Source of the DNA: Candidatus Saccharimonadales bacterium
GTDB lineage: Bacteria; Patescibacteriota; Saccharimonadia; Saccharimonadales; UBA10212
Reading direction: 5' to 3'
DNA: 64,000 nt
Assembly (NCBI GenBank): GCA_040900055.1
Contig: JBBDZU010000002.1
Location: forward strand, 127,725 to 191,724
Shown here: piece after piece, positions 112 to 61,525 of the stretch
How the letters are laid out: each line of letters opens with the position of its first letter
Numbering within the stretch: the first letter of the stretch is position 1
Position numbers and translations under genes: made by a program
Notes under the pieces: generated by a model
Databases searched by the model: none
What the model was told of the DNA's origin: nothing
The model's input: the letters and a program-made list of their open reading frames with translations, nothing else

Positions 112-402
112 ATGGCATCCACACCACTGCAACCTTTGGCTGACTGGGTAGTCGCCGAACAAGAAGAAGCCGCTACCAAAACTGCCTCGGGACTTTATCT
201 ACCGGACAAGGCTGCCGAGAAACCCAAAGTAGCCAAGGTCCTAAAAGTTGGCTCAAAAGTTAAAGAAATTAAAGCCGGCGACCGAATTGTTTATAAAAGC
301 TATAGCACCACTGACGTGAAAATAGCTGACACCGAATATATTTTAGTAAAAGAAGAAGACATTCTGGCAACCGTCCTGCCTGCCGGCAGGCAAGGTAAAT
401 AG
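112..402 (+). CDS. groES: co-chaperonin GroES (10 kDa), with an unusual C-terminal LPAGRQGK tail
   Basis: 96 aa. Mobile-loop region and ...EYILVKEEDILATV match Cpn10. GGAGGAG SD. Immediately upstream of groEL. Confidence 0.95.
   Translation: MASTPLQPLADWVVAEQEEAATKTASGLYLPDKAAEKPKVAKVLKVGSKVKEIKAGDRIVYKSYSTTDVKIADTEYILVKEEDILATVLPAGRQGK
375..394. repeat. GC palindrome family copy 1 (CCTGCCTGCCGGCAGGCAaG)
   Basis: Matches the 20-mer found at 7806, 50662 and 50908 at 19/20 positions. The perfect 16-bp palindrome spans 377-392. Confidence 0.9.
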
Positions 403-5798: not shown

Positions 5799-7466
5799 AT
5801 GGTGCAGGAGCTAAAAAAACTCTTGGCGGCGGAGTGTCAACGTCAATTTGATATTGATATTGAACCGCAGCTAGAAATCCCCGACAGAAAATTTGGCGAT
5901 TACGCTACAAACTTGCCGCTGCAAGTTGCCGCTAAAACCGGCAAAGATCCTAAGGCCATCGCGGAATCGCTGGCTAAGGTCTTAAAAAAATTGCCGCAAA
6001 TATCCGAAGTAAAAGTAGCGGGGCCAGGCTTTATTAACTTTTTTTTGTCTGACAAAGCGATTTTGGACAGCTTGGAACAGGGCCCACTTTTGCACTATAA
6101 GGGCCAAACTGTAGTTGTAGAGTATTCTGATCCGAATCCTTTTAAAGTGCTTCATGTCGGCCATCTATACACTTCCGTAGTGGGTGATGCGATTGCCAAA
6201 ATATTGGAGGCCGCCGGCGCTAAAGTAGCCAGAGTTAATTTTGGCGGTGATGTTGGACTACATGTGGCCAAAACTATGTGGGCTGTACGACAGCGACTAG
6301 GAGGTGAATACCCCGAAAAATTAACCAAAATGGCAGAGAAAACTGGACCCGATTGGTTAGCTGAGGCTTATGCAGAGGGCAACAGGGCTTATGAAGAAGA
6401 CACTAAAGCTAAAGAACAAATTAGGGAGCTAAATGAGCGAATCTATACGTTGCATGACGAAAAAGATGAGGACTCTAATCTAGCTAAAATCTATTGGTTA
6501 ACCCGGAAGTGGAGCTATAAATGTTTTGAGACCTTCTATGGCATGATTGGCACACATTTTGACCGGTTCTACCCAGAAAGTGAGACCGCCGGGCTCGGGC
6601 TTAAAGTAGTCCGCGAAAATATCGGCAAGGTTTTTGAGGAATCTGAAGGCGCCATTATTTTTAAGGGCGAAGTTCATAATATGCATACCCGGGTTTTCAT
6701 AAACAGCCAAAATTTGCCAACTTACGAGACTAAAGATATAGGTTTGGCTCTAAAAAAATGGCAGGACTACCATTACGATCGCTCAATCATCATTACTGGC
6801 AACGATATTTATGAATACATGCAGGTTGTTTTAAAGGCTTTAGAACAAATTGAGCCTGAACTTGCTAAAAAGACCGTTCATATAACGCATGGTCTAGTGA
6901 AGGCAACCGGCGGTATTAAGATGAGCAGCCGTTTAGGCAATATTATCAGGGCAGAAGATGTGCTATCAGCGGCTGATAAAGCTAACACAAAAGCCAACAA
7001 GCAGCAAAATTCTGATGTAGCGTTGGGTGCAGTAAAATATGCCTTCTTAAAGCAGCGAATCGGTGCTGATATAATTTTTAATCCAGACGAGTCTGTAAGC
7101 CTACAAGGAAACAGCGGGCCTTATCTACAGTATGCGTATGTGCGAGCGCACAGTATTTTAAAGAAATCAAACAATACTACCAAACCACACCCACTAGCCG
7201 CTAGCCTTGAGAATGAGGAGCGCAGCCTGGCCCGTAAAATTAGCGAATATCAGGAGGTTGTGACCAAAGCCACCGATGAGTTAATGCCGCACCACATTTG
7301 CACCTATCTTTATGAGCTGGCCCAGACGTTTAACCGCTTTTACGAGACTAATCGGATTATTGATGATCCCCGCCAGCCCATCCGTTTAAAGCTGGTAGGA
7401 GCCTACAGTAAAGTTCTAAAAAACGGCTTGGAGCTATTAAATATTCCGGTGCTAGAAAGGATGTAA
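5799..7466 (+). CDS. argS: arginine--tRNA ligase
   Basis: 555 aa. HVGH (HIGH) motif, MSSR (KMSK-like) motif and the typical C-terminal ...LERM. Confidence 0.95.
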
Positions 7467-7467
7467 C

Positions 7468-7902
7468 ATGGCTAAAGTTCAGCTGTCTGACGAGGAACTG
7501 AAAAAGAAACTTACGCCTGAACAATACCGCATTCTTCGGCAAAAAGGCACGGAAGCGCCTTTCTCCGGTAAGTACCTAGACCACAAAGAAAAGGGCATGT
7601 ATACCTGCGCAGCCTGTGGCGTCCGACTTTTTAGCAGTGACACCAAATTTGACTCCGGTACCGGCTGGCCAAGCTTTTATGACGTTACGTCAAGTGACGC
7701 CGTTAAATTAGCAGAAGATAGCAGCCATGGTATGAACCGCGTAGAAGTTACCTGCGCCAACTGCGGCAGTCACTTAGGGCATGTTTTTAACGATGGACTT
7801 ACGACCCTGCCTGCCGGCAGGCAGGCTACCGGCCAGAGATTTTGCATTAACTCGGCTTGCCTCGGTTTTATGCCAGAAGGCAGCTCTAAGGCCAAAGGCT
7901 AG
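7468..7902 (+). CDS. msrB: peptide-methionine (R)-S-oxide reductase MsrB, with in-frame palindrome insertion
   Basis: 144 aa. Two CxxC pairs and GHVFNDG...RFCINS. An extra [10 protein letters not shown] sits where homologs have about 3 residues. Confidence 0.93.
7806..7825. repeat. GC palindrome family copy 2 (CCTGCCTGCCGGCAGGCAGG)
   Basis: Perfect 20-bp palindrome inside msrB. Confidence 0.95.
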
Positions 7903-7904
7903 CC

Positions 7905-8735
7905 TTACCTAACGCGCTCAGATAGGCTGCGACCTAAGTCGGCGACATTACTGCTGCCAACACTGCGGGTCAAGACGCTAACAGCGTAGCTTCGACCATT
8001 TGAGTAACTAATAATTGCTACGTCGTGCCATTCTAAAAGTTCGTTCCAGCCAACCTTGTTATGAACGATAGCTTGGCTTATGCCGCTAGGCAGGCCGCGT
8101 CTATAAATGGCCGGCTGGTCTTTGAGCGAATCTAAAAATGCTTCGGTGTGAGCTTTGGTTAAATCACGCCGCTCAAACAATCTTTGTAAAATTTTGGAGC
8201 TGTCGGCTGCCGAAGTTTCCAGGCCGGTCATTGAGGTGTTTGTTAAGCCGTAAGTCTTTAACTTGGCCGTTGAGGCTTCTTTGCCTAGCTCTGCCCACAT
8301 TTTCTCGCCGCAGGGGCTATAGGAGTTTCTGATCATTTCATCTAGGCATTTGCCGCGGCTATAGCCAGTCAGATAGGCATCGTCCATTTGATAAGTGCCG
8401 TCGGCAGCAACCTTCTGGTAGCCTAAATAGGCCACATAGAGCTTATATAAGCTGGCGGCAAAATAAGGTTTATCGGCGTTTAAGCTAGCCACAGTTTTTT
8501 TGTTGTTAAGGTCAATAATCGCGACACTTGCTGTACCATTTTGTTTGGCCGCCCAAGCGTCAACTTCCGGCTGAAGGTCGATTACTGGATATTTGCTGTT
8601 GGGCTCGGCAGAGGACTGGTCAGCAGACTCGGTGCTATTTTTTGAGCCCTGATCAGGCCAAAAAATAAAAGCCACAATGACAGCTAATGCTATAAGGATT
8701 AGATACTTTTTTAGCTTTCTTTGGCGACGTGCCAT
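7905..8735 (-). CDS. membrane-anchored serine hydrolase, class A beta-lactamase-like
   Basis: 276 aa. N-terminal TM segment, SLYK (SxxK) motif and KVG (KTG-like) motif. Confidence 0.55.
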   Translation of the reverse strand: MARRQRKLKKYLILIALAVIVAFIFWPDQGSKNSTESADQSSAEPNSKYPVIDLQPEVDAWAAKQNGTASVAIIDLNNKKTVASLNADKPYFAASLYKLYVAYLGYQKVAADGTYQMDDAYLTGYSRGKCLDEMIRNSYSPCGEKMWAELGKEASTAKLKTYGLTNTSMTGLETSAADSSKILQRLFERRDLTKAHTEAFLDSLKDQPAIYRRGLPSGISQAIVHNKVGWNELLEWHDVAIISYSNGRSYAVSVLTRSVGSSNVADLGRSLSERVR

Positions 8736-8782: not shown

Positions 8783-9997
8783 TTGCAATATAGGCCCTAT
8801 AATTACCGGCCGCAAGCTCTGCGGCCACCGCCTAAAAAACGCCGGCGAACACGCAAATGGCTTTTGGTTTTACTTTTAGCCGCAAGCGTATTTGGATTAT
8901 ATAAGCTCGTTAGCGGTAGTGCCCTATTGCCCTCGAGCCTAGTAAATATAGCCGACAGCTCTCCCAAGCCGACATCTATAGAAGGCCGCTATTTGTTTAG
9001 CGGTACTATAGTGCTCGATAGGGTAGTGGCTTCTGAAGCTGGCAGTGATTACAGCCAACCTTTTAGCGGTATGGCCAGTTTTGGTGACTTTGATACTGGC
9101 ATAGCCGATTTAGAGTGTCCAGTGACAGACAGTAGCTATCGTTCCGTAAAAGGCCAAGAGCAGCCGCGTTTTAATTGCCAGCCAGACTGGCTGGCAGAAC
9201 TTAAAAAGTATATTGGGGTTATTAAGCTAGCCGGCAACCATACTTACGACATGGGAGCCGATGGCTTTACCGAAACAGTGGAGAGGCTGCAAGCAGCCGG
9301 CATCCAAACCGTTGGGCATCATAACCCCCATATAGAAAAAGATAATTGCAGGGTCGTGGCCATGCCGGTTAGGGTCCAAAAATCGGATAACCAGCAAGAA
9401 AAAGGCACACTGCCTATCGCAATTTGCGCCTTTAACTACAAGATTATCTTTTCACCAGAGCCAGGCGAGGTAGAAGTTATAAAAAGATATGCCAAAATTA
9501 TGCCCGTGATTGGCATGCTGCAGGCAGGCGCCGAATACATAACCACTGCCGGTGCCCAACAGCAAGCCTACGCACGCAAAATTATCGATAACGGCGCGGA
9601 CTTAGTAGTTGCTAATGGTACGCACTATGTCCAAAATAGCGAAGTTTATAAAAATAAATTAATTGTTTACTCTCTAGGTAACTTTATTTTTGACCAAACC
9701 GATTATGAGACTATGCGGTCTGTTGCCATCTCAGTTGATATGGCGGCTAGCTATAACGAAAATGTTAGCAAATGGCTGGCATTAAGTGCCAAATGTAACG
9801 CGCCGGCGAGAGAAGATAATTGCCTAGCAGAGGCCGAAAAACAAGGGCTGACTAAGATTAATTCAAAATTTAAATTTGAGCCAATTGGCAGTAGCGGCGG
9901 TGTGCGCAAAATTACCAAAAAAGCCGATGCTACTTTGCAAAAAGCTATTGAAGAGCGTCTCAACTGGGCGCAAGTAGCCAAGGAACTTGGCCAATAA
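8783..9997 (+). CDS. CapA-family (PGA_cap) metallophosphatase-like protein
   Basis: 404 aa. LAGNHTYDMG...AGIQTVG pattern typical of CapA. N-terminal TM segment. TTG start. Confidence 0.7.
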   Translation: MQYRPYNYRPQALRPPPKKRRRTRKWLLVLLLAASVFGLYKLVSGSALLPSSLVNIADSSPKPTSIEGRYLFSGTIVLDRVVASEAGSDYSQPFSGMASFGDFDTGIADLECPVTDSSYRSVKGQEQPRFNCQPDWLAELKKYIGVIKLAGNHTYDMGADGFTETVERLQAAGIQTVGHHNPHIEKDNCRVVAMPVRVQKSDNQQEKGTLPIAICAFNYKIIFSPEPGEVEVIKRYAKIMPVIGMLQAGAEYITTAGAQQQAYARKIIDNGADLVVANGTHYVQNSEVYKNKLIVYSLGNFIFDQTDYETMRSVAISVDMAASYNENVSKWLALSAKCNAPAREDNCLAEAEKQGLTKINSKFKFEPIGSSGGVRKITKKADATLQKAIEERLNWAQVAKELGQ

Positions 9998-33852: not shown

Positions 33853-36078
33853 ATGGCTAAAAAAAGAAAAAGAGCTACTAAAACTACTGCTAAACCAATC
33901 CGCAAAGCGCGCCGCAACCGCCAGGTTTCGGCCAATTTTTGGCGGGGAGTTGGCGCGGTTATTTTAATTATTGCCGGCATCGTCTTACTTTTTGGCGCCT
34001 TTATCAACGCACCCATCCCTAGGGGTTTTTGGGATGGCACTTGGTGGGCTTTAGGGGCGGCAGCGCCAATAACTCCCTTAGCCTTGTTATATTTAGGCTC
34101 ATTAAAATTTATTAGCGAAGATCACCTAATACCTTTGCCCAAAATGGTGGGGGTCTTGGGCCTTTTAACTTTTTTTGCCAGCTGGCTACATACCGCCTTT
34201 TTGCATGAAGAAAACGGCATTTTAGTAGGCGGTTATGGCGGGGAAGTTGGTGGTGCGATAGGTAATGTTTTGGTAACGGCGCTTGGCGAGTTTTTGGCAT
34301 CGTTAGTCTTTTTTGTACTTACCTTATTTGCCGTCTTTTTTACTTTTGGCATTGAACCCAGGTCGCTTCTTAAGCTAGCCGAACTTTTTAAACGTGAACC
34401 ATCCGAAGAAGACCCAGAAGATCTCGGTGCTCTTAAAAAGAAGATGGGTGCAGGTTTTCAATTACACGAAGGCGTGCCAGTAGAACACCATCCTAGCCAA
34501 CCAGTTATGGGCTCGCTGCGCAACACAGCCCAAAGACTGGCACCCAGTGAAGATCACGCCGCCCTGACACTGGCCAGCGATCCAGACTGGCAATTCCCGT
34601 CGCTAGACTTGCTAGACGAAAAACAAGACAAAGCCGATGCTGGTGACGTTAAAGCCAACGCCGAAATTATTAAAGAAACTTTCACCAACTTTAATATTGA
34701 TGTAGACGTAGAGGGCGCTAATGTTGGCCCCAGGGTCACTCAATTTACCCTAAAACCGCCTACAGGGGTTAAATTAGCGCGCTTAACAGCATTAGAAAAT
34801 AACTTGGCGCTGGATTTAGCTGCTGAGAGCATCCGTATGGAAGCTCCCATCCCCGGAAAACGAGCTGTCGGTATAGAAGTGCCTAATGTTAAGGCCGCTA
34901 CAGTGACCATCCATAGTCTCCTAACCAGCCCAGAATGGCGCGAGACTAAGAGCCAGCTAAGTTTTGTGATTGGAAAAGATATTGCCGGCTCACCAATAGT
35001 TGGCGACCTGGAAAAAATGCCACACATTCTAATCGCTGGCCAAACCGGCTCTGGTAAATCTGTAATGATTAATACGCTTTTAACCAGCTTGCTTTATCGC
35101 AACAGCCCATCGGACTTAAAGCTGATTTTGGTTGATCCAAAACAAGTCGAAATGGGTCTTTATCATGACATTCCCCATCTGCTTAGTCCGGTAATTCACG
35201 AGCCAGAAAAATGCATCAGCGCCTTAAAGTGGGCAGTGGCCGAAATGGAACGGCGCCTAAGGGCCTTTGCAGAAGTTGGCAAACGCAATATCAAAGAATA
35301 TAACACCGTTAAAAAAGAAGAAGAGGGCATGCCTTACGTTGTTATTGTTATCGATGAGCTGGCCGACCTTATGATGATGGCTGCTCGTGATGTAGAAGCA
35401 CTGGTAGTTAGGTTAGCCCAAAAAGCCCGAGCCGCGGGCATTCACTTAGTAATTGCCACCCAGAGACCGAGTGTAGATGTTATTACCGGCTTGATTAAAG
35501 CTAACGTGCCAGCGCGTATTGCCTTTACGGTAGTTAGCCAAGTAGACTCTCGTACAATTATTGACCAAATTGGTGCCGAGAAACTGCTAGGCCGCGGTGA
35601 CTTACTATTTAGCATACCCGAATATTCCAAGCCAAAAAGGGTGCAAGGCTCGCTAATTACCGACGGCGAAACTTCTAAAGTTTGTGATTTCTTGCGGGCT
35701 CAGCGGCCGCCGCAATACGACGATGAAGTAGTTAGCCAACCAGTTCAGTTAACTGGTCGTGGCGGCATGGTTTCGCAAATTGGCGAAGAGGATGATCATG
35801 TGCTAAAAGACGCTGTCGGCGTAGTTGTGGCCAGCGGCAAAGCCAGTACCAGTCTTCTGCAACGAAAACTAAGGATTGGTTACGGACGAGCCTCACGCTT
35901 AATGGATATTATGGAAGAACGGGGCATCATCGCCAGGAGTGACGGTACCAATCGTCCTCGAGAAGTGTTAATCCGCGATGTTGATGAAATATTTGGTGCT
36001 CCCGCACCCGCTAGCGTTGAAAGTAGCGAAGGCGATGTTTACGACGATATGCCCGACGAACAATTTGAGAAACAATAG
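33853..36078 (+). CDS. ftsK: DNA translocase FtsK/SpoIIIE
   Basis: 741 aa. N-terminal TM segments, Walker A GQTGSGKS and a C-terminal gamma wHTH (LLQRKLRIGYGRASRLMD). Confidence 0.95.
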   Translation: MAKKRKRATKTTAKPIRKARRNRQVSANFWRGVGAVILIIAGIVLLFGAFINAPIPRGFWDGTWWALGAAAPITPLALLYLGSLKFISEDHLIPLPKMVGVLGLLTFFASWLHTAFLHEENGILVGGYGGEVGGAIGNVLVTALGEFLASLVFFVLTLFAVFFTFGIEPRSLLKLAELFKREPSEEDPEDLGALKKKMGAGFQLHEGVPVEHHPSQPVMGSLRNTAQRLAPSEDHAALTLASDPDWQFPSLDLLDEKQDKADAGDVKANAEIIKETFTNFNIDVDVEGANVGPRVTQFTLKPPTGVKLARLTALENNLALDLAAESIRMEAPIPGKRAVGIEVPNVKAATVTIHSLLTSPEWRETKSQLSFVIGKDIAGSPIVGDLEKMPHILIAGQTGSGKSVMINTLLTSLLYRNSPSDLKLILVDPKQVEMGLYHDIPHLLSPVIHEPEKCISALKWAVAEMERRLRAFAEVGKRNIKEYNTVKKEEEGMPYVVIVIDELADLMMMAARDVEALVVRLAQKARAAGIHLVIATQRPSVDVITGLIKANVPARIAFTVVSQVDSRTIIDQIGAEKLLGRGDLLFSIPEYSKPKRVQGSLITDGETSKVCDFLRAQRPPQYDDEVVSQPVQLTGRGGMVSQIGEEDDHVLKDAVGVVVASGKASTSLLQRKLRIGYGRASRLMDIMEERGIIARSDGTNRPREVLIRDVDEIFGAPAPASVESSEGDVYDDMPDEQFEKQ

Positions 36079-36088
36079 AATGTAGGCG

Positions 36089-36124
36089 GATCCCTCCCAA
36101 TTTCTGTAGAAATTGGGAGGGATC
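36089..36124. terminator. bidirectional 16-bp perfect hairpin between convergent genes
   Basis: GATCCCTCCCAATTTC-TGTA-GAAATTGGGAGGGATC, between the ftsK stop and the stop of the minus-strand gene. Confidence 0.6.
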
Positions 36125-36566
36125 ACGCCATGACGGCCTTCGGCATCAGCGACCAGTTGTGGCAAAGAACGTAGTTGGCAGGTAGAGCGATGCCCAGCCC
36201 CCAGACTAGGGCAATGCCAACCTGGGCCTCCAGGTACGAGAACCCGAAGGCTCCAACCATCGCCAAGTAGGCCAGATGTGGTACTGAGGTCATCACTAGC
36301 CTCTGACATGACCACCTAGCAGCACTGTTGACGAGAGCGACTCGTCTGTCGCGCCAAACGAACAGCAGGGCGCAGAAGACAAAGGGGCCCATAGTCGCTG
36401 AGGTGGTTGCTTTGGCTAGTCGTTCGTCCAAACCGAGTTGTGATACATACAGATGAATCACCCCAAGGCCTGCTACGAACGAAAGGGCAGAGACGGCCAG
36501 ATACTCGGTAATGCGACGTTTATGGCTACGGAGAAGGCTCCGCAGCTGCTCAACTTTGTGGCGCAT
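36123..36566 (-). CDS. GC-rich small integral membrane protein (possibly GtrA-like)
   Basis: 147 aa, about 4 TM segments. GC is well above the flanks. Family assignment is weak. Confidence 0.5.
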   Translation of the reverse strand: MRHKVEQLRSLLRSHKRRITEYLAVSALSFVAGLGVIHLYVSQLGLDERLAKATTSATMGPFVFCALLFVWRDRRVALVNSAARWSCQRLVMTSVPHLAYLAMVGAFGFSYLEAQVGIALVWGLGIALPANYVLCHNWSLMPKAVMA

Positions 36567-50086: not shown

Positions 50087-50587
50087 ATGAAATACCGGCT
50101 TAACAAACAAAAAGAACCAAGAGTCCCCAAAAACTTGGGCGGTTTTACAATTATCGAGGTTGTTATTGTGCTGGCTATCGCTGGTCTAATTATGGCCATA
50201 GTTTTTATAGCCGTACCTCAACTTAACCGCAACGCTCGAGATAATGCCCGGCAAAACGTTGCCAATCGTTTGCACTCAGAACTTGGGACCTACGCTGCCA
50301 ATAATAGCGGAACCTATCCATTTACCACTTCGGCGCTAGCTGATTTCTCTAGCCGCTATGCCTCGACCATTAAGATGACTAATCCATCAACTGGCAGTAC
50401 GTACTCGCTAGACTTCGCTAGCAGTGATGGAGCAAATCCCAGTGCCGATCAAATCCTTATTCATCGCGGCGCTAGGTGTACCGGCGAACAAGCCTCTGGC
50501 ACCAGCTCCTCAGCCACTACCAGATCTTATGCGCTGCGGGTAGCGCTGGATAGATCAAACATTTTCTACTGCATCGACAACGGATAG
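50087..50587 (+). CDS. pilA: type IV major pilin
   Basis: 166 aa. Leader ...KNLGG|FTIIEVVIVLAIAGL with G at -1, F at +1 and E at +5. Confidence 0.85.
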   Translation: MKYRLNKQKEPRVPKNLGGFTIIEVVIVLAIAGLIMAIVFIAVPQLNRNARDNARQNVANRLHSELGTYAANNSGTYPFTTSALADFSSRYASTIKMTNPSTGSTYSLDFASSDGANPSADQILIHRGARCTGEQASGTSSSATTRSYALRVALDRSNIFYCIDNG

Positions 50588-50661
50588 ACCTACTTTGGAC
50601 AGCCAAAGTAGCAAAACCGCCGGGCGCGTCGCCAAGCTTGAGTAGCGGTTGTTTAAAACAG

Positions 50662-50681
50662 CCTGCCTGCCGGCAGGCAGG
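50662..50681. repeat. GC palindrome family copy 3
   Basis: Perfect CCTGCCTGCCGGCAGGCAGG. Confidence 0.95.
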
Positions 50682-50906
50682 GCTCGCTGTGGATCTCACC
50701 CTCACCATTTTCACTGGAAATGGTGAGGGGCTCAAACAGTCCTCGCGACCAAGTACGCCTCTTTAATAAACAACAGACTACTCAGGTTAACTCCTTATGC
50801 CCGGACCCATAAATTGGGCATGTAGGCGAGCCTGAGCTAAGCACGTCAAAAGCATCAACTTAATAATGCCGAGGACTGTCCGATCCGCCAGCTGGCGGAG
50901 AGGGCC

Positions 50907-50928
50907 GCCTGCCTGCCGGCAGGCAGGC
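50907..50928. repeat. GC palindrome family copy 4 (22 bp)
   Basis: GCCTGCCTGCCGGCAGGCAGGC. A CCGCCAGCTGGCGG palindrome lies adjacent at 50885-50898. Confidence 0.95.
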
Positions 50929-51066
50929 TTGTCGTCCCGCAGGCTTGTTTGTGCGCTTTGACAGGGGTTGGCGTCAGCCGAGCCTACGCCCAGAGCTTTT
51001 TTTGCTACTTTTGTCGGCACAAAAGTAGCGAATACTTTGCTTCTTTAGAAAGAAGCAGTTAGCATT

Positions 51067-51876
51067 ATGGTAATGCTTGTTACGGCTATTGCCTTAGCTA
51101 TTTTAGGCTTATGCTTGGGGAGCTTTGTAAACGCCCTGGTTTGGCGCATACATGTCAATAAAAATTGGGTGAAGGCTAGAAGCCAGTGCCCAACCTGCGG
51201 CCATATTCTATCGGCACGCGATCTAATTCCGGTTATATCTTGGTTATCATTACGCGGTCGTTGCCGTTACTGCGGCAATAAAATCTCTTGGCAGTATCCT
51301 ATTTCCGAACTTGGCCTATCAGCTGTTTTTATGACTTCTTATTATTTTTGGCCTGGCGGGTTAACTAGCACCGGTCCTAAAATTTTATTCATTAGCTGGC
51401 TTATTTCGGCTGTAGGTCTTTTGGCCTTATTTATTTATGACCTTCGTTGGATGTTGCTGCCCAGTAAAATCCTGGCTGCTACAGCTTTGGTGGCCATAAC
51501 CGGACGGCTGATTTACTTAATCGGCTTTGAACCGTCAAAAACTGAAGGCCTTGCCAATTGGCTACTTAGCATCACAGTAGCCAGTGGTCTATTTGGGTTA
51601 TTTTATATAATTTCACGCGGTCGCTGGATAGGCGACGGGGACATTAGCCTTGGTCTAATTACCGGCACCTTGCTGGCCGATCCATTGCGAAGTTTTTTAA
51701 TGATTTTTTTGGCGTCGCTAATTGGCACTTTAGTGGTGTTGCCGGCCATTATCAGCGGTCGGCGGGCGCTTGGTACTAGGGTGGCCTATGGCCCGTTTTT
51801 GATTTTAGCGGCATTTATTGTCCTTTTGTTTGGCGATCCATTTATCGATTGGTATAAGGCGCTGATTTTAGTTTAG
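51067..51876 (+). CDS. pilD: prepilin peptidase / N-methyltransferase
   Basis: 269 aa. CPTCGH...CRYCG zinc motif. Multi-TM protein with GDGD-type aspartate motifs. Confidence 0.9.
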   Translation: MVMLVTAIALAILGLCLGSFVNALVWRIHVNKNWVKARSQCPTCGHILSARDLIPVISWLSLRGRCRYCGNKISWQYPISELGLSAVFMTSYYFWPGGLTSTGPKILFISWLISAVGLLALFIYDLRWMLLPSKILAATALVAITGRLIYLIGFEPSKTEGLANWLLSITVASGLFGLFYIISRGRWIGDGDISLGLITGTLLADPLRSFLMIFLASLIGTLVVLPAIISGRRALGTRVAYGPFLILAAFIVLLFGDPFIDWYKALILV

Positions 51877-58067: not shown

Positions 58068-58105
58068 CCCGATGGGCGTCCGCCAGCTGGCGGACGCCCA
58101 TCGGG
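58068..58105. repeat. perfect 38-bp palindrome
   Basis: CCCGATGGGCGTCCGCCAGCTGGCGGACGCCCATCGGG. Its core CCGCCAGCTGGCGG also occurs at 50885-50898. Confidence 0.95.
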
Positions 58106-60226: not shown

Positions 60227-61138
60227 TTACGGTTTTCGGTGAAACTTCTCGTGAACGGCCTTTAGGTGCGGGTCGGTAACATGAGTATAAATTTGGGTAG
60301 TAGCAATGTTGCTATGGCCTAACATAGCTTGCACACTGCGCAAATCCGCGCCATTCATTAATAGATCGGTAGCAAAGGAGTGCCGCAATGTATGGGGACT
60401 AACGTGTTTAGTAATTCCAGCAAGTTTGGCATAGCGGGCGACCATCCTCTGGACACTGCGGGCAGTTAACCGGGCAAAATTACCAGATTGATCGACTTTT
60501 TTCGAGCCGCTATAGCGGATAAATAGAGGTTTGGAGTTATCTTGACGCTTGGCCAGATATGCTGAAATCCATTCAGCCGCCTCGGGACTAATAAAAATCG
60601 GTCGATCTTTTTGGCCTTTGCCGCGGACCATAAACTCCCGCCGCCCTAAGTTGATATGGTCGCTATCTAGGCCAACTAGCTCGCTAACCCGTAGGCCGCT
60701 GGAAAACAGCAGCTCAATGATAGATCGATCACGCAAACCAGCCAGGGTAGAGGTATCGGGCTGGGAAGCTAGCCGCTCTAACTCATCTGGTGTTAAAAAG
60801 GTAACTTGAGGCCGCTGAATACGGGCTAACTCTATCTTATCGGGTGCCAAAGCCGCCATTTCTCGCTTGGCGCAAAAGCGCAAAAAACTACGAAGGGCAA
60901 TAAGATGGTAGTTCTGGGTGGTTTTAGATAGTTCGTCAGAGGTATTAGTGCCCAAACGGTTAAGCCAAAGCCGCCATTTACGGATAAGCTCTACATCTAT
61001 ATCGGCTAACTTTATATCGCCGGCAAAGTCGGACAGCCTGGTTAAATAATGGCTGTAGTTGGCAATAGTTTTAGAGGAGCGGTTTTGCTCTAGCTCCAAG
61101 TACTCTAAAAACTGCTCAACAGCCTGCTCATAAGGCAT
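60227..61138 (-). CDS. tyrosine recombinase XerC/XerD family
   Basis: 303 aa. The R..HxxR..Y catalytic set is present (RHSFATDLL, GHSNIATTQIYTHV). Confidence 0.88.
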   Translation of the reverse strand: MPYEQAVEQFLEYLELEQNRSSKTIANYSHYLTRLSDFAGDIKLADIDVELIRKWRLWLNRLGTNTSDELSKTTQNYHLIALRSFLRFCAKREMAALAPDKIELARIQRPQVTFLTPDELERLASQPDTSTLAGLRDRSIIELLFSSGLRVSELVGLDSDHINLGRREFMVRGKGQKDRPIFISPEAAEWISAYLAKRQDNSKPLFIRYSGSKKVDQSGNFARLTARSVQRMVARYAKLAGITKHVSPHTLRHSFATDLLMNGADLRSVQAMLGHSNIATTQIYTHVTDPHLKAVHEKFHRKP

Positions 61139-61235: not shown

Positions 61236-61261
61236 AGCTTCGTCCGCCGAAACTTTTCATT

Positions 61262-61525
61262 ATGCGTTATGTCTACGTCTTACACAGCAAGAAAGATAAT
61301 CAATTCTATATTGGTTCTTCTCATAATGTCAGGAAGCGTCTTAAGGAGCATAATGATGGGAGAGTACCGGCGACGCGTGACAGAATCCCGCTAGAAATCA
61401 TCCACTACGAAGCTTTTGCTAATAAATACGATGCTTTCTTTCGCGAGAGATGGTTAGAAACTGGCTGGGGCCGTAGATACTTAAGGAAATCGCTACATAA
61501 TAAAATGAAAAGTTTAGGCGGATAA
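61262..61525 (+). CDS. GIY-YIG nuclease superfamily protein (UPF0213-like)
   Basis: 87 aa. YVYVLHSKKDNQFYIGSSHNVRKRLKEHN motif. Confidence 0.85.
   Translation: MRYVYVLHSKKDNQFYIGSSHNVRKRLKEHNDGRVPATRDRIPLEIIHYEAFANKYDAFFRERWLETGWGRRYLRKSLHNKMKSLGG

Follow-up and report, generated by a model that had tools for sequence, protein, structure and literature searches.

The question raised by this locus is how a GC-rich perfect palindrome of 20 bp, CCTGCCTGCCGGCAGGCAGG (here named PAL), came to lie inside the msrB gene of a Candidatus Saccharimonadales bacterium (GenBank assembly GCA_040900055.1, contig JBBDZU010000002.1, positions 127,725 to 191,724), in frame and right before the catalytic motif RFCINS. 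The 64,000-nt stretch that was analysed is referred to as the window, L-numbers designate fetched DNA loci and P-numbers MsrB proteins; the coordinates of the features are collected in Table 1. The msrB palindrome is one copy of a tiny repeat, which has probably been spread by templated copying, with a small nuclease as candidate helper, followed by selection on the copies that fell into genes.

The msrB product matches the SelR family, with E = 1e-48 to the solved MsrB3. Its SelR domain, the GHVF and RFCINS motifs and two zinc-binding CxxC pairs are intact, and C47, C50, C96, C99, H102, H105, R124, C126 and N128 are invariant in the ortholog alignment. Across the palindrome the gene reads (C)CTG CCT GCC GGC AGG CAG(G), and the 144-aa open reading frame (ORF) is intact; that the insertion keeps the frame had been stated in the first-pass annotation, made from the letters alone. 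The net gain of about seven residues proposed there was also recovered: the loop is seven residues longer than in solved MsrB structures (DDGP-------RPTG, the HMMER gap lying opposite LTTLPAG), none of which showed the loop in the alignment, and six residues (18 bp) longer than in the closest Saccharibacteria orthologs (NDAPDQPTG). Structure prediction had been suggested as a way to see whether the insert forms a surface loop. In the AlphaFold2 model, with a mean predicted local distance difference test (pLDDT) of 69, residues 110-120 are a low-confidence coil (pLDDT <50) between strands 102-108 and 123-127; PAL in msrB enlarges a loop between two β-strands right before RFCINS.

Table 1. Coordinates of msrB, of the PAL and PAL-B palindromes and of the GIY-YIG reading frame in the window.
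Feature	Position	Strand	Remarks
msrB, 144 aa, PF01641 SelR	7468..7902	+	directly 3' of argS (5799..7466); starts two bases past the argS stop
Enlarged loop, codons G110-A120	7795..7827	+	33 bp where the short-loop ortholog in L125 has 15 bp (APDQP)
PAL, perfect 20-bp palindrome CCTGCCTGCCGGCAGGCAGG	7806..7825	no strand	within msrB, read (T)LPAGRQ(A)
PAL copy, one mismatch (…GGCAAG)	375..394	no strand	3' end of groES (112..402)
PAL copy, perfect, intergenic	50662..50681	no strand	between a pilin-like gene (50087..50587) and a prepilin peptidase gene (51067..51876)
PAL copy, perfect at 50908-50927, with 1 bp more on each side a 22-bp palindrome	50907..50928	no strand	intergenic, pilin-prepilin peptidase spacer
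PAL-B TCCGCCAGCTGGCGGA	50884..50899	no strand	upstream of the PAL copy at 50908, separated from it by 8 bp
38-bp perfect zero-loop palindrome CCCGATGGGCGTCCGCCAGCTGGCGGACGCCCATCGGG	58068..58105	no strand	between convergent genes; PAL-B (58079-58094) at its exact centre
Stand-alone GIY-YIG ORF, 87 aa, catalytic domain only	61262..61525	+	same family as the PAL-linked genes; not adjacent to PAL
Left arm TCCGCCGAAACTTTTCAT of a 17/18 inverted repeat round the GIY-YIG ORF	61243..61260	+	outer 6 nt are the ends of PAL-B
Right arm ATGAAAAGTTTAGGCGGA of the 17/18 inverted repeat	61505..61522	+	encodes C-terminal MKSLGG

Among the 120 most similar proteins of a collection of 5.8 billion, 114 have a 12-residue segment (NDAPDQPTGxRF) without the loop, while six, the query included, have an 18-residue segment; every one of the closest proteins (83-86% identity with the loop left out) has the short form. 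One of them, P0004, is encoded in L125, a locus of 20 kb in which argS and msrB follow each other as in the window and where the DNA at the site reads GAT GCA CCC GAT CAG CCA ACT GGC, compared to GAT GGA CTT ACG ACC CTG CCT GCC GGC AGG CAG GCT ACC GGC in the window. As L125 is short-loop and no PAL-like sequence was found in the whole locus, the PAL site is empty in the nearest relative obtainable. The msrB copy is perfect and absent both from the closest orthologs and from this syntenic relative, for which reason it appears to be young.

A sequencing, assembly or library artefact, for instance an adapter-like palindrome, has to be weighed here, since PAL carriers are mostly metagenome-assembled genomes (MAGs) and chimeric reads can create palindromes. 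However, the same 144-aa protein is on record in both an NCBI Saccharimonadales MAG and a Logan assembly, and homologous loops occur in unrelated samples, which makes the error at this site that the first-pass annotation had allowed for very unlikely. PAL moreover lies in frame within intact genes, with the same gene on both sides, it was found in cultured isolates, and it shows graded decay in orthologs of other samples; the probability left to an artefact is negligible.

The palindrome recurs in the window, with four matches at up to three mismatches against 0.01 expected from shuffles (0 of 100 shuffles gave four); a scan at up to six mismatches added to these copies just register-shifted self-matches and matches at chance level. 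The groES copy is read in the same LPAGRQ frame as the msrB copy, as had been noticed before, and gives a C-terminal LPAGRQGK* (the last eight residues with their stop context). In alignment to solved structures GroES homologs stop at about the residue that precedes the PAL peptide, so that LPAGRQGK is a C-terminal extension. As RNA, PAL is predicted to fold into an 8-bp stem with a 4-nt loop. An Rfam scan of the window at gathering thresholds returned two tRNAs only, and neither PAL nor the spacer at 50588-51066 matched any RNA family.

Beyond the window, the exact 20-mer is present in at least 120 stretches of species-representative genomes, against an expectation of about 0.5 for the 596 Gb. 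The carriers comprise Patescibacteria of many classes, Bacteroidota, Omnitrophota, Planctomycetota, Gamma- and Deltaproteobacteria, Bdellovibrionales, Thermodesulfovibrionales, Thermodesulfobacteriota, Chloroflexi and others, including the cultured Bacteroidota Winogradskyella, Flagellimonas, Longitalea and Flavivirga. The first-pass annotation had noted such behaviour as not known to be described for Candidate Phyla Radiation (CPR) bacteria; in-frame MsrB copies do occur there, but the element is no CPR peculiarity, the same 20-mer being found in many phyla. Viral contigs contain PAL in 35 stretches. Some viral-classed contigs (L245, L252 and L253, which are one 29.5-kb IMG/VR contig, and L231) are rich in PAL, with three to six or more copies and another repeated palindrome (…CCCACCCTTGTCCGCCGCGGCGGACAAGGGTGGG…); these may be either phages with such elements or misclassified cellular DNA.

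The flanks of PAL are unrelated from copy to copy, with a weak preference for A at position -1 and T at +1, and the lengths of target-site duplications (TSDs) equal the permuted expectation. The 7-bp direct repeats at L049, L084, L086 and L105 were rejected as TSDs, all of them lying inside local tandem repeats. PAL was found within PAL in L022 and L046, and at the centre of larger hairpins in L083, L117, L023 and L071. When PAL was removed in silico, 10.8% of the junctions fell in a hairpin loop compared to 3.9% of random control positions, a contrast that is confounded because PAL copies are mostly intergenic and the controls mostly coding. About 10% of 170 copies sampled without bias lie in long ORFs and about 90% outside. 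PAL is thus an exactly conserved, dispersed 20-bp unit that crosses phyla, inserts without duplication and spreads within genomes, and it is mostly intergenic, often at a hairpin apex or inside its own copies. That the palindrome might be mobile or recombinogenic, as was proposed at first sight, agrees with this dispersal and with its absence from the msrB of the nearest relative. In some environmental genomes (metagenome loci L129-L224) PAL lies inside longer repeat families with conserved flanks that are readable as peptides in one frame, which suggests composite elements built round PAL.

A stable hairpin at gene ends (the 3' end of groES, the intergenic copies after the pilin gene) could also be a host cis-acting signal, for example a site for DNA uptake or protein binding, or an RNA hairpin that serves attenuation or the stability of mRNA, and both the position of PAL in the 5' leader of the GIY-YIG genes described below and the type IV pilus and competence-type genes encoded in the window could be read in this way. 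However, neither identity across phyla with unrelated regulators nor self-nesting would be expected of such a signal, nor would a position in conserved enzyme loops with decay after insertion, and the window copies have no T-tract for termination. A host signal is therefore considered very improbable.

Because PAL has no stop codon in any frame, a copy in a gene is simply translated where the net length change is divisible by three. In-frame copies were found in an FtsK-like protein (L017), GatB (L108), RfbB (L025) and several membrane proteins; in alignments to solved structures the PAL peptide adds seven residues to GatB and about seven to eight to RfbB. Of 15 ORFs with 300 codons or more, 10 read PAL as LPAGRQ (p = 0.0085), a bias that is drawn from these 15 ORFs. 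LPAGRQ is the sole cysteine-free frame, the other two, PACRQAG and CLPAGR, each encoding cysteine. The first-pass annotation had named selection against frame-breaking copies as one of its explanations, and the biased frame use in real genes is consistent with such a selection step.

Other long-loop MsrBs read DGP-xx-LP[D/A]G[R/K]Q-A-TG, and at the DNA level they show this palindrome in successive stages of decay. The loop DNA of L001 (CCTGCCTGACGGCAGGCAGG) is 19/20 identical to it, that of L126 reads CTG TCT GAT GGC AGG GAG, that of L002 TTA CCA GAT GGC AAG CAG (LPDGKQ) and that of L004 ACA CCG GAC GGG AAA CCT. Since five of the six changes in L002 are synonymous, the sixth being R to K, the inserted peptide is translated and under protein-level constraint, and the protein itself has no need for the palindrome. 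Older msrB copies lose the palindrome yet keep the peptide. An equivalent loop without the palindrome in orthologs of unrelated phyla had been named as evidence that would speak against insertion: loops of the same length do exist in L002, L004 and L126, but as their DNA is decayed palindrome they represent older copies of the same kind of event rather than an independent protein loop. When metagenomes were scanned for the palindrome together with the ATG codons after it, 98 loci were returned, of which 12 are msrB with PAL or its GAC variant (LPDGRQ) at the same codon. Their products differ widely from each other (e.g., CRRCDAHLGHVFDDGP… and CAKCGGHLGHVFPDGP…), and the synonymous sites of the Gly, Pro, Ala and Thr codons that flank the palindrome are randomised.

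These data bear on the view that an MsrB subfamily simply has such a loop as an ordinary protein-level feature and that codon choice produced the palindrome as a by-product, LPAGRQ being its own reverse-complement translation. Although the conservation of LPDG[RK]Q where the palindrome has decayed would suit this view, the three further window copies (one with a mismatch) lie in non-homologous contexts and are not msrB fragments, the exact 20-mer recurs in the many genomic stretches counted above, L002 and L004 encode the loop peptide non-palindromically, which means that the protein does not require the palindrome, and the 20-mer is fixed while the flanking codons are synonymously randomised. 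A codon by-product is accordingly very hard to credit.

The long form is rare overall. It was found in five of the best 150 matches in a library of representatives at 50% identity, while 39 of the best 120 proteins in a full-length search with a long-loop profile have long loops; a loop-centred profile of 48 aa returned short gene fragments only. Named carriers are Woesebacteria, Giovannonibacteria and Yanofskybacteria, and the long-loop MsrBs among the matches listed come only from Patescibacteria. With the loop masked, the nearest neighbours of long-loop proteins are not each other, and average-linkage clustering of 277 sequences required at least 11 state changes (bootstrap 11-17; shuffled labels 23-25), in a tree built from about 120 aligned residues by that simple method. 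The loop has also been hit more than once. In L221 (Giovannonibacteria protein P0454) a second perfect palindrome of 18 bp, CCTGCCTGCGCAGGCAGG (LPAQAG), lies four codons upstream; L260/P0405 has two tandem PAL-derived units in the loop; P0414 reads LPDA-RLPAGQ-GRQA, apparently PAL nested in PAL as judged from the protein alone; and in L262/P0458 the upstream site is occupied by another, different GC-rich hairpin. Since the long-loop proteins do not form one clade and the loop was hit repeatedly, the MsrB loop is a recurrent landing site in Patescibacteria.

The alternative to repeated landing is a single ancient insertion or old loop allele, spread by descent and by msrB recombination or horizontal gene transfer, from which the present genome acquired the whole loop cassette; the perfect palindrome would then reflect gene conversion or selection at the DNA or RNA level and not a fresh insertion. 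Long forms share NDG…A-TG and short forms NDA…P-TG, so that it is a 33-bp block that differs and not 20 bp; the loop DNA of the query is identical to that of L193 at 33 of 39 bases, flanks included; and long loops cluster more than permuted labels would (11 changes vs 23-25). On the other hand, with the loop left out the query is 83-86% identical to short-loop proteins and at most 75% to any with a long loop, L125, the syntenic relative, has a short loop, the tandem, apparently nested and second-site inserts amount to several events in the loop, and elsewhere PAL plainly enters as a free 20-bp unit. We therefore regard the ancient allele as unlikely, although it deserves more weight than any of the other alternatives discussed in this text.

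Known short palindromic elements include repetitive extragenic palindromic (REP) sequences and REPINs, which are mainly extragenic, clustered and without TSD, with a single-copy enzyme gene flanked by its own repeats (PMC3116915). REPINs move as inverted doublets of imperfect palindromes, and their REP sequences are lineage-specific and co-evolve with a Y1 transposase (PMC3116915). PAL resembles them in size, in its extragenic bias (about 90% outside long ORFs) and in the lack of TSD; it differs in that its sequence is not lineage-specific and the gene found beside it is of the GIY-YIG type instead of Y1. A REP/REPIN-type element moved by a RAYT (REP-associated tyrosine transposase, IS200/IS605-like, Y1) was the mobiliser for which a search had been recommended in the first-pass annotation. 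PAL is short, palindromic, mostly extragenic and without TSD, and it may act via single-stranded DNA hairpins; REPINs insert into or beside each other (PMC3116915). However, no RAYT/IS200 (Y1) or other transposase turned up when 20 unassigned ORFs of the window were compared with Pfam, no such family recurred near 120 PAL loci, and a GIY-YIG nuclease gene co-locates with PAL elsewhere instead. REP sequences co-diverge with RAYT by lineage (PMC3116915), while PAL is identical across phyla; and PAL is a single perfect palindrome with mostly solitary copies and no inverted doublet. A RAYT-moved element is thus most improbable, a shade more so than a host signal.

All-against-all BLAST of the ORFs of the 120 PAL loci gave no recurring transposase family; the only relevant recurring family consisted of GIY-YIG proteins of 79-88 aa. 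These match PF01541 only (E = 4e-11 to 2e-15, above the gathering score), so that they have the catalytic domain of GIY-YIG homing endonucleases and no separate DNA-binding domain. In loci ascertained through PAL, nine of the 12 family genes have a PAL with zero to two mismatches 14-57 bp upstream of the start codon. L041, L110, L122, L081, L127, L256 and L150 share a cassette order in which a partial 5' tRNA copy with PAL is followed by the GIY-YIG ORF and then by the intact same tRNA; ARAGORN places the intact tRNA downstream, and the PAL-bearing ones are partial duplicated copies. Comparison with the intact tRNA shows that exactly the 20 bp of PAL were inserted in L127 (twice), L256, L041 and L110, the upstream copy in L127 being GGCTGCGTAGTT[PAL]CAACTGGATA[PAL]GAATATCAGATTTCGAC, and the junctions in the tRNA copies are located where stem and loop of the D or anticodon hairpins meet. 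In L081 a 19-nt GAC variant substitutes for 19 nt of the tRNA copy.

Several PAL copies adjoin the 5' sequence of a tRNA. PAL as an intron-like interruption of tRNA genes was considered and rejected, as deletion in silico restored a complete tRNA at 0 of 128 sites; the sole junction-spanning ARAGORN call, in L034, is an 86-nt artefact. The tRNA-gene cassettes span several phyla and one viral contig. The GIY-YIG stop codon lies inside the regenerated tRNA in L110, and the 5' part of the tRNA is present in three successive copies in L150. At L064 (3780-4900) PAL and, after it, a GIY-YIG domain are fused into a single long ORF, with flanks that presumably resemble the repeats of an HsdS-like protein (type I restriction specificity); the arrangement has the look of a cassette that entered a gene. 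The window has a GIY-YIG ORF of its own, with a gene for a XerC/D-like recombinase (60227..61138, - strand) on one side and ndk on the other. The 6-nt identity between the arms of its inverted repeat and the ends of PAL-B is too short for any conclusion, and the idea that PAL-B is a collapsed GIY-YIG cassette was dropped.

In the explanation that we favour, the small, catalytic-domain-only GIY-YIG nuclease would make DNA breaks, and PAL would be copied into these breaks, or into hairpin tips, by repair templated on another copy. Its spread would then be gene conversion rather than cut-and-paste transposition, and selection would subsequently purge frame-breaking and cysteine-encoding copies from genes. 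In this scheme the nuclease is a candidate mobiliser only, named from its gene neighbourhood. More tentatively, PAL and the minimal GIY-YIG nuclease may be an unrecognised mobile system with a cross-phylum host range, which would cut hairpin or cruciform DNA (tRNA genes, terminators, palindromes) and copy PAL in. Such a system would leave hundreds of solo palindromes as well as tRNA-gene cassettes, with new protein surface loops as a by-product, and micro-palindromes such as TCCGCCAGCTGGCGGA (PAL-B) would be its sister elements.

Besides the confounded hairpin contrast, the small set of ORFs behind the frame bias and the coarse clustering tree, several observations weigh against the favoured explanation. 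It leaves the identity of one exact 20-mer across phyla unexplained. The msrB copy is no clean 20-bp insertion, 33 bp replacing 15 bp, and its flanking codons, G..T..(PAL)..A-TG, are like those of other long-loop msrBs (L193 among them, with the identity given above), so that recombination with a long-loop msrB allele, and not de novo insertion, could be the source of the copy. The link with the GIY-YIG gene is purely positional; more than 90% of PAL copies have no GIY-YIG gene nearby, and the one in the window is 10 kb from the nearest PAL. The PAL that adjoins a GIY-YIG gene always lies in a displaced partial tRNA copy, and for this reason the association could also arise if both elements favour dead tRNA-like DNA or are tolerated there.

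The closest precedent for in-frame translation is provided by the Rickettsia palindromic elements (RPEs), of about 150 bp, with a conserved peptide of their own and confined to Rickettsia (PMC10969869). RPEs integrate in frame into unrelated housekeeping genes, where they are translated and tolerated in the fold (PMC10969869). The likeness to RPEs drawn in the first-pass annotation holds for PAL in so far as it is in frame and translated, as an insertion compared to homologs, in MsrB, GatB, RfbB and GroES, and is likewise in frame in the FtsK-like protein. Unlike the RPEs, whose range is 100-150 bp in Rickettsia, PAL is 20 bp long (seven times shorter), adds about six to seven residues and crosses phyla. 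[quoted passage not shown]

In size and nesting, two other groups may be taken as the nearest analogues of PAL. The first are the small dispersed repeats (SDRs) of cyanobacteria, which Elhai et al. in 2008 reportedly found to be about 21-27 nt long, hairpin-forming, seemingly mobile, present in many contexts and nested. To our knowledge SDRs have no known enzyme and are restricted to cyanobacteria. PAL differs in being cross-phylum, in frame in conserved proteins and accompanied by a candidate partner gene. The second are the GC clusters of yeast and fungal mitochondria, short GC-rich palindromes in AT-rich genomes that are sometimes in frame in protein genes. The genomes concerned also hold GIY-YIG homing endonuclease genes; the clusters are organellar, 30-50 bp long and of several divergent classes, and we know of no link between them and tRNA-targeting cassettes.

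Known homing GIY-YIG enzymes, such as the Seg proteins of phage T4 and the I-TevI family, have a long DNA-binding domain. With free-standing GIY-YIG homing genes the present family shares the catalytic domain and a cassette in a conserved target (tRNA genes), the function of which is regenerated with an interrupted copy adjoining. In contrast to homing genes, it consists of a catalytic domain of about 80-88 aa only and has no group I intron, and its constant neighbour is a 20-bp palindrome that also exists in hundreds of solo copies. In CPR rRNA genes, non-intron insertions with GIY-YIG ORFs have been reported together with many short ORF-less insertions at the top or base of stem-loops (PMC11270868). 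The latter resemble the preference of PAL for hairpin junctions; that work concerned rRNA genes, and contained neither PAL nor protein-coding targets or tRNA cassettes (PMC11270868). A search of about eight million searchable papers and preprints gave no match to the exact PAL sequence, and the literature on palindromes in frame in Patescibacteria, or on GIY-YIG genes with tRNA and palindromes, yielded nothing on PAL. PAL is best placed among the very short palindromic mobile repeats, and there is a real chance that the pairing of nuclease and palindrome is a new type of system.

If this holds, 20 bases of selfish DNA have crossed phyla and are a live source of protein-loop innovation in small-genome bacteria: the loop beside the MsrB active site would have been remodelled repeatedly, and GatB, RfbB, FtsK-like and GroES proteins would have been hit as well. 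The minimal GIY-YIG nuclease would be a testable candidate for an old puzzle, the transposase-free movement of very short palindromic repeats. In practical terms, PAL marks recent insertion and deletion events that could be used for strain tracking in uncultured lineages, it accounts for odd LPAGRQ, PACRQAG and CLPAGR peptides in metagenomic proteins, and it can mislead gene callers into spurious read-through ORFs, such as the 77-aa ORF at 50787..51020 (- strand) of the window, which runs through PAL as PACRQAG.

PAL-B is the second micro-palindrome of the window. Its core was found ten times in eight fetched loci, often at hairpin centres, and beside PAL in L015 and L020, a gammaproteobacterial locus and another Saccharibacteria locus. 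The palindrome at 58068-58105 looks like a micro-palindrome inserted into the apex of an older hairpin. The 480-bp spacer between the pilin-like and prepilin peptidase genes has at least seven separate hairpins or palindromes; these include two PAL copies, PAL-B, a hairpin with a 12-bp stem (50699-50729) and, at 50590 and 51004, a pair of hairpins whose CTACTTT… arms are alike.

Some further differences were seen between the window and L125. Between msrB and yjbR the window has two genes that L125 (argS-msrB-yjbR) does not, namely a gene for a beta-lactamase-family protein (7905..8735, - strand) and a 404-aa ORF (8783..9997). In L125 (45-1688) groEL was called as two ORFs of 164 and 377 aa, which suggests a frameshift, an insertion or an assembly error. 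Finally, a hairpin with a 17-bp stem, GATCCCTCCCAATTTCTGTAGAAATTGGGAGGGATC, lies at 36089-36124 of the window, between a convergent ftsK-like gene (33853..36078) and an ORF at 36123..36566, and is probably a bidirectional terminator.

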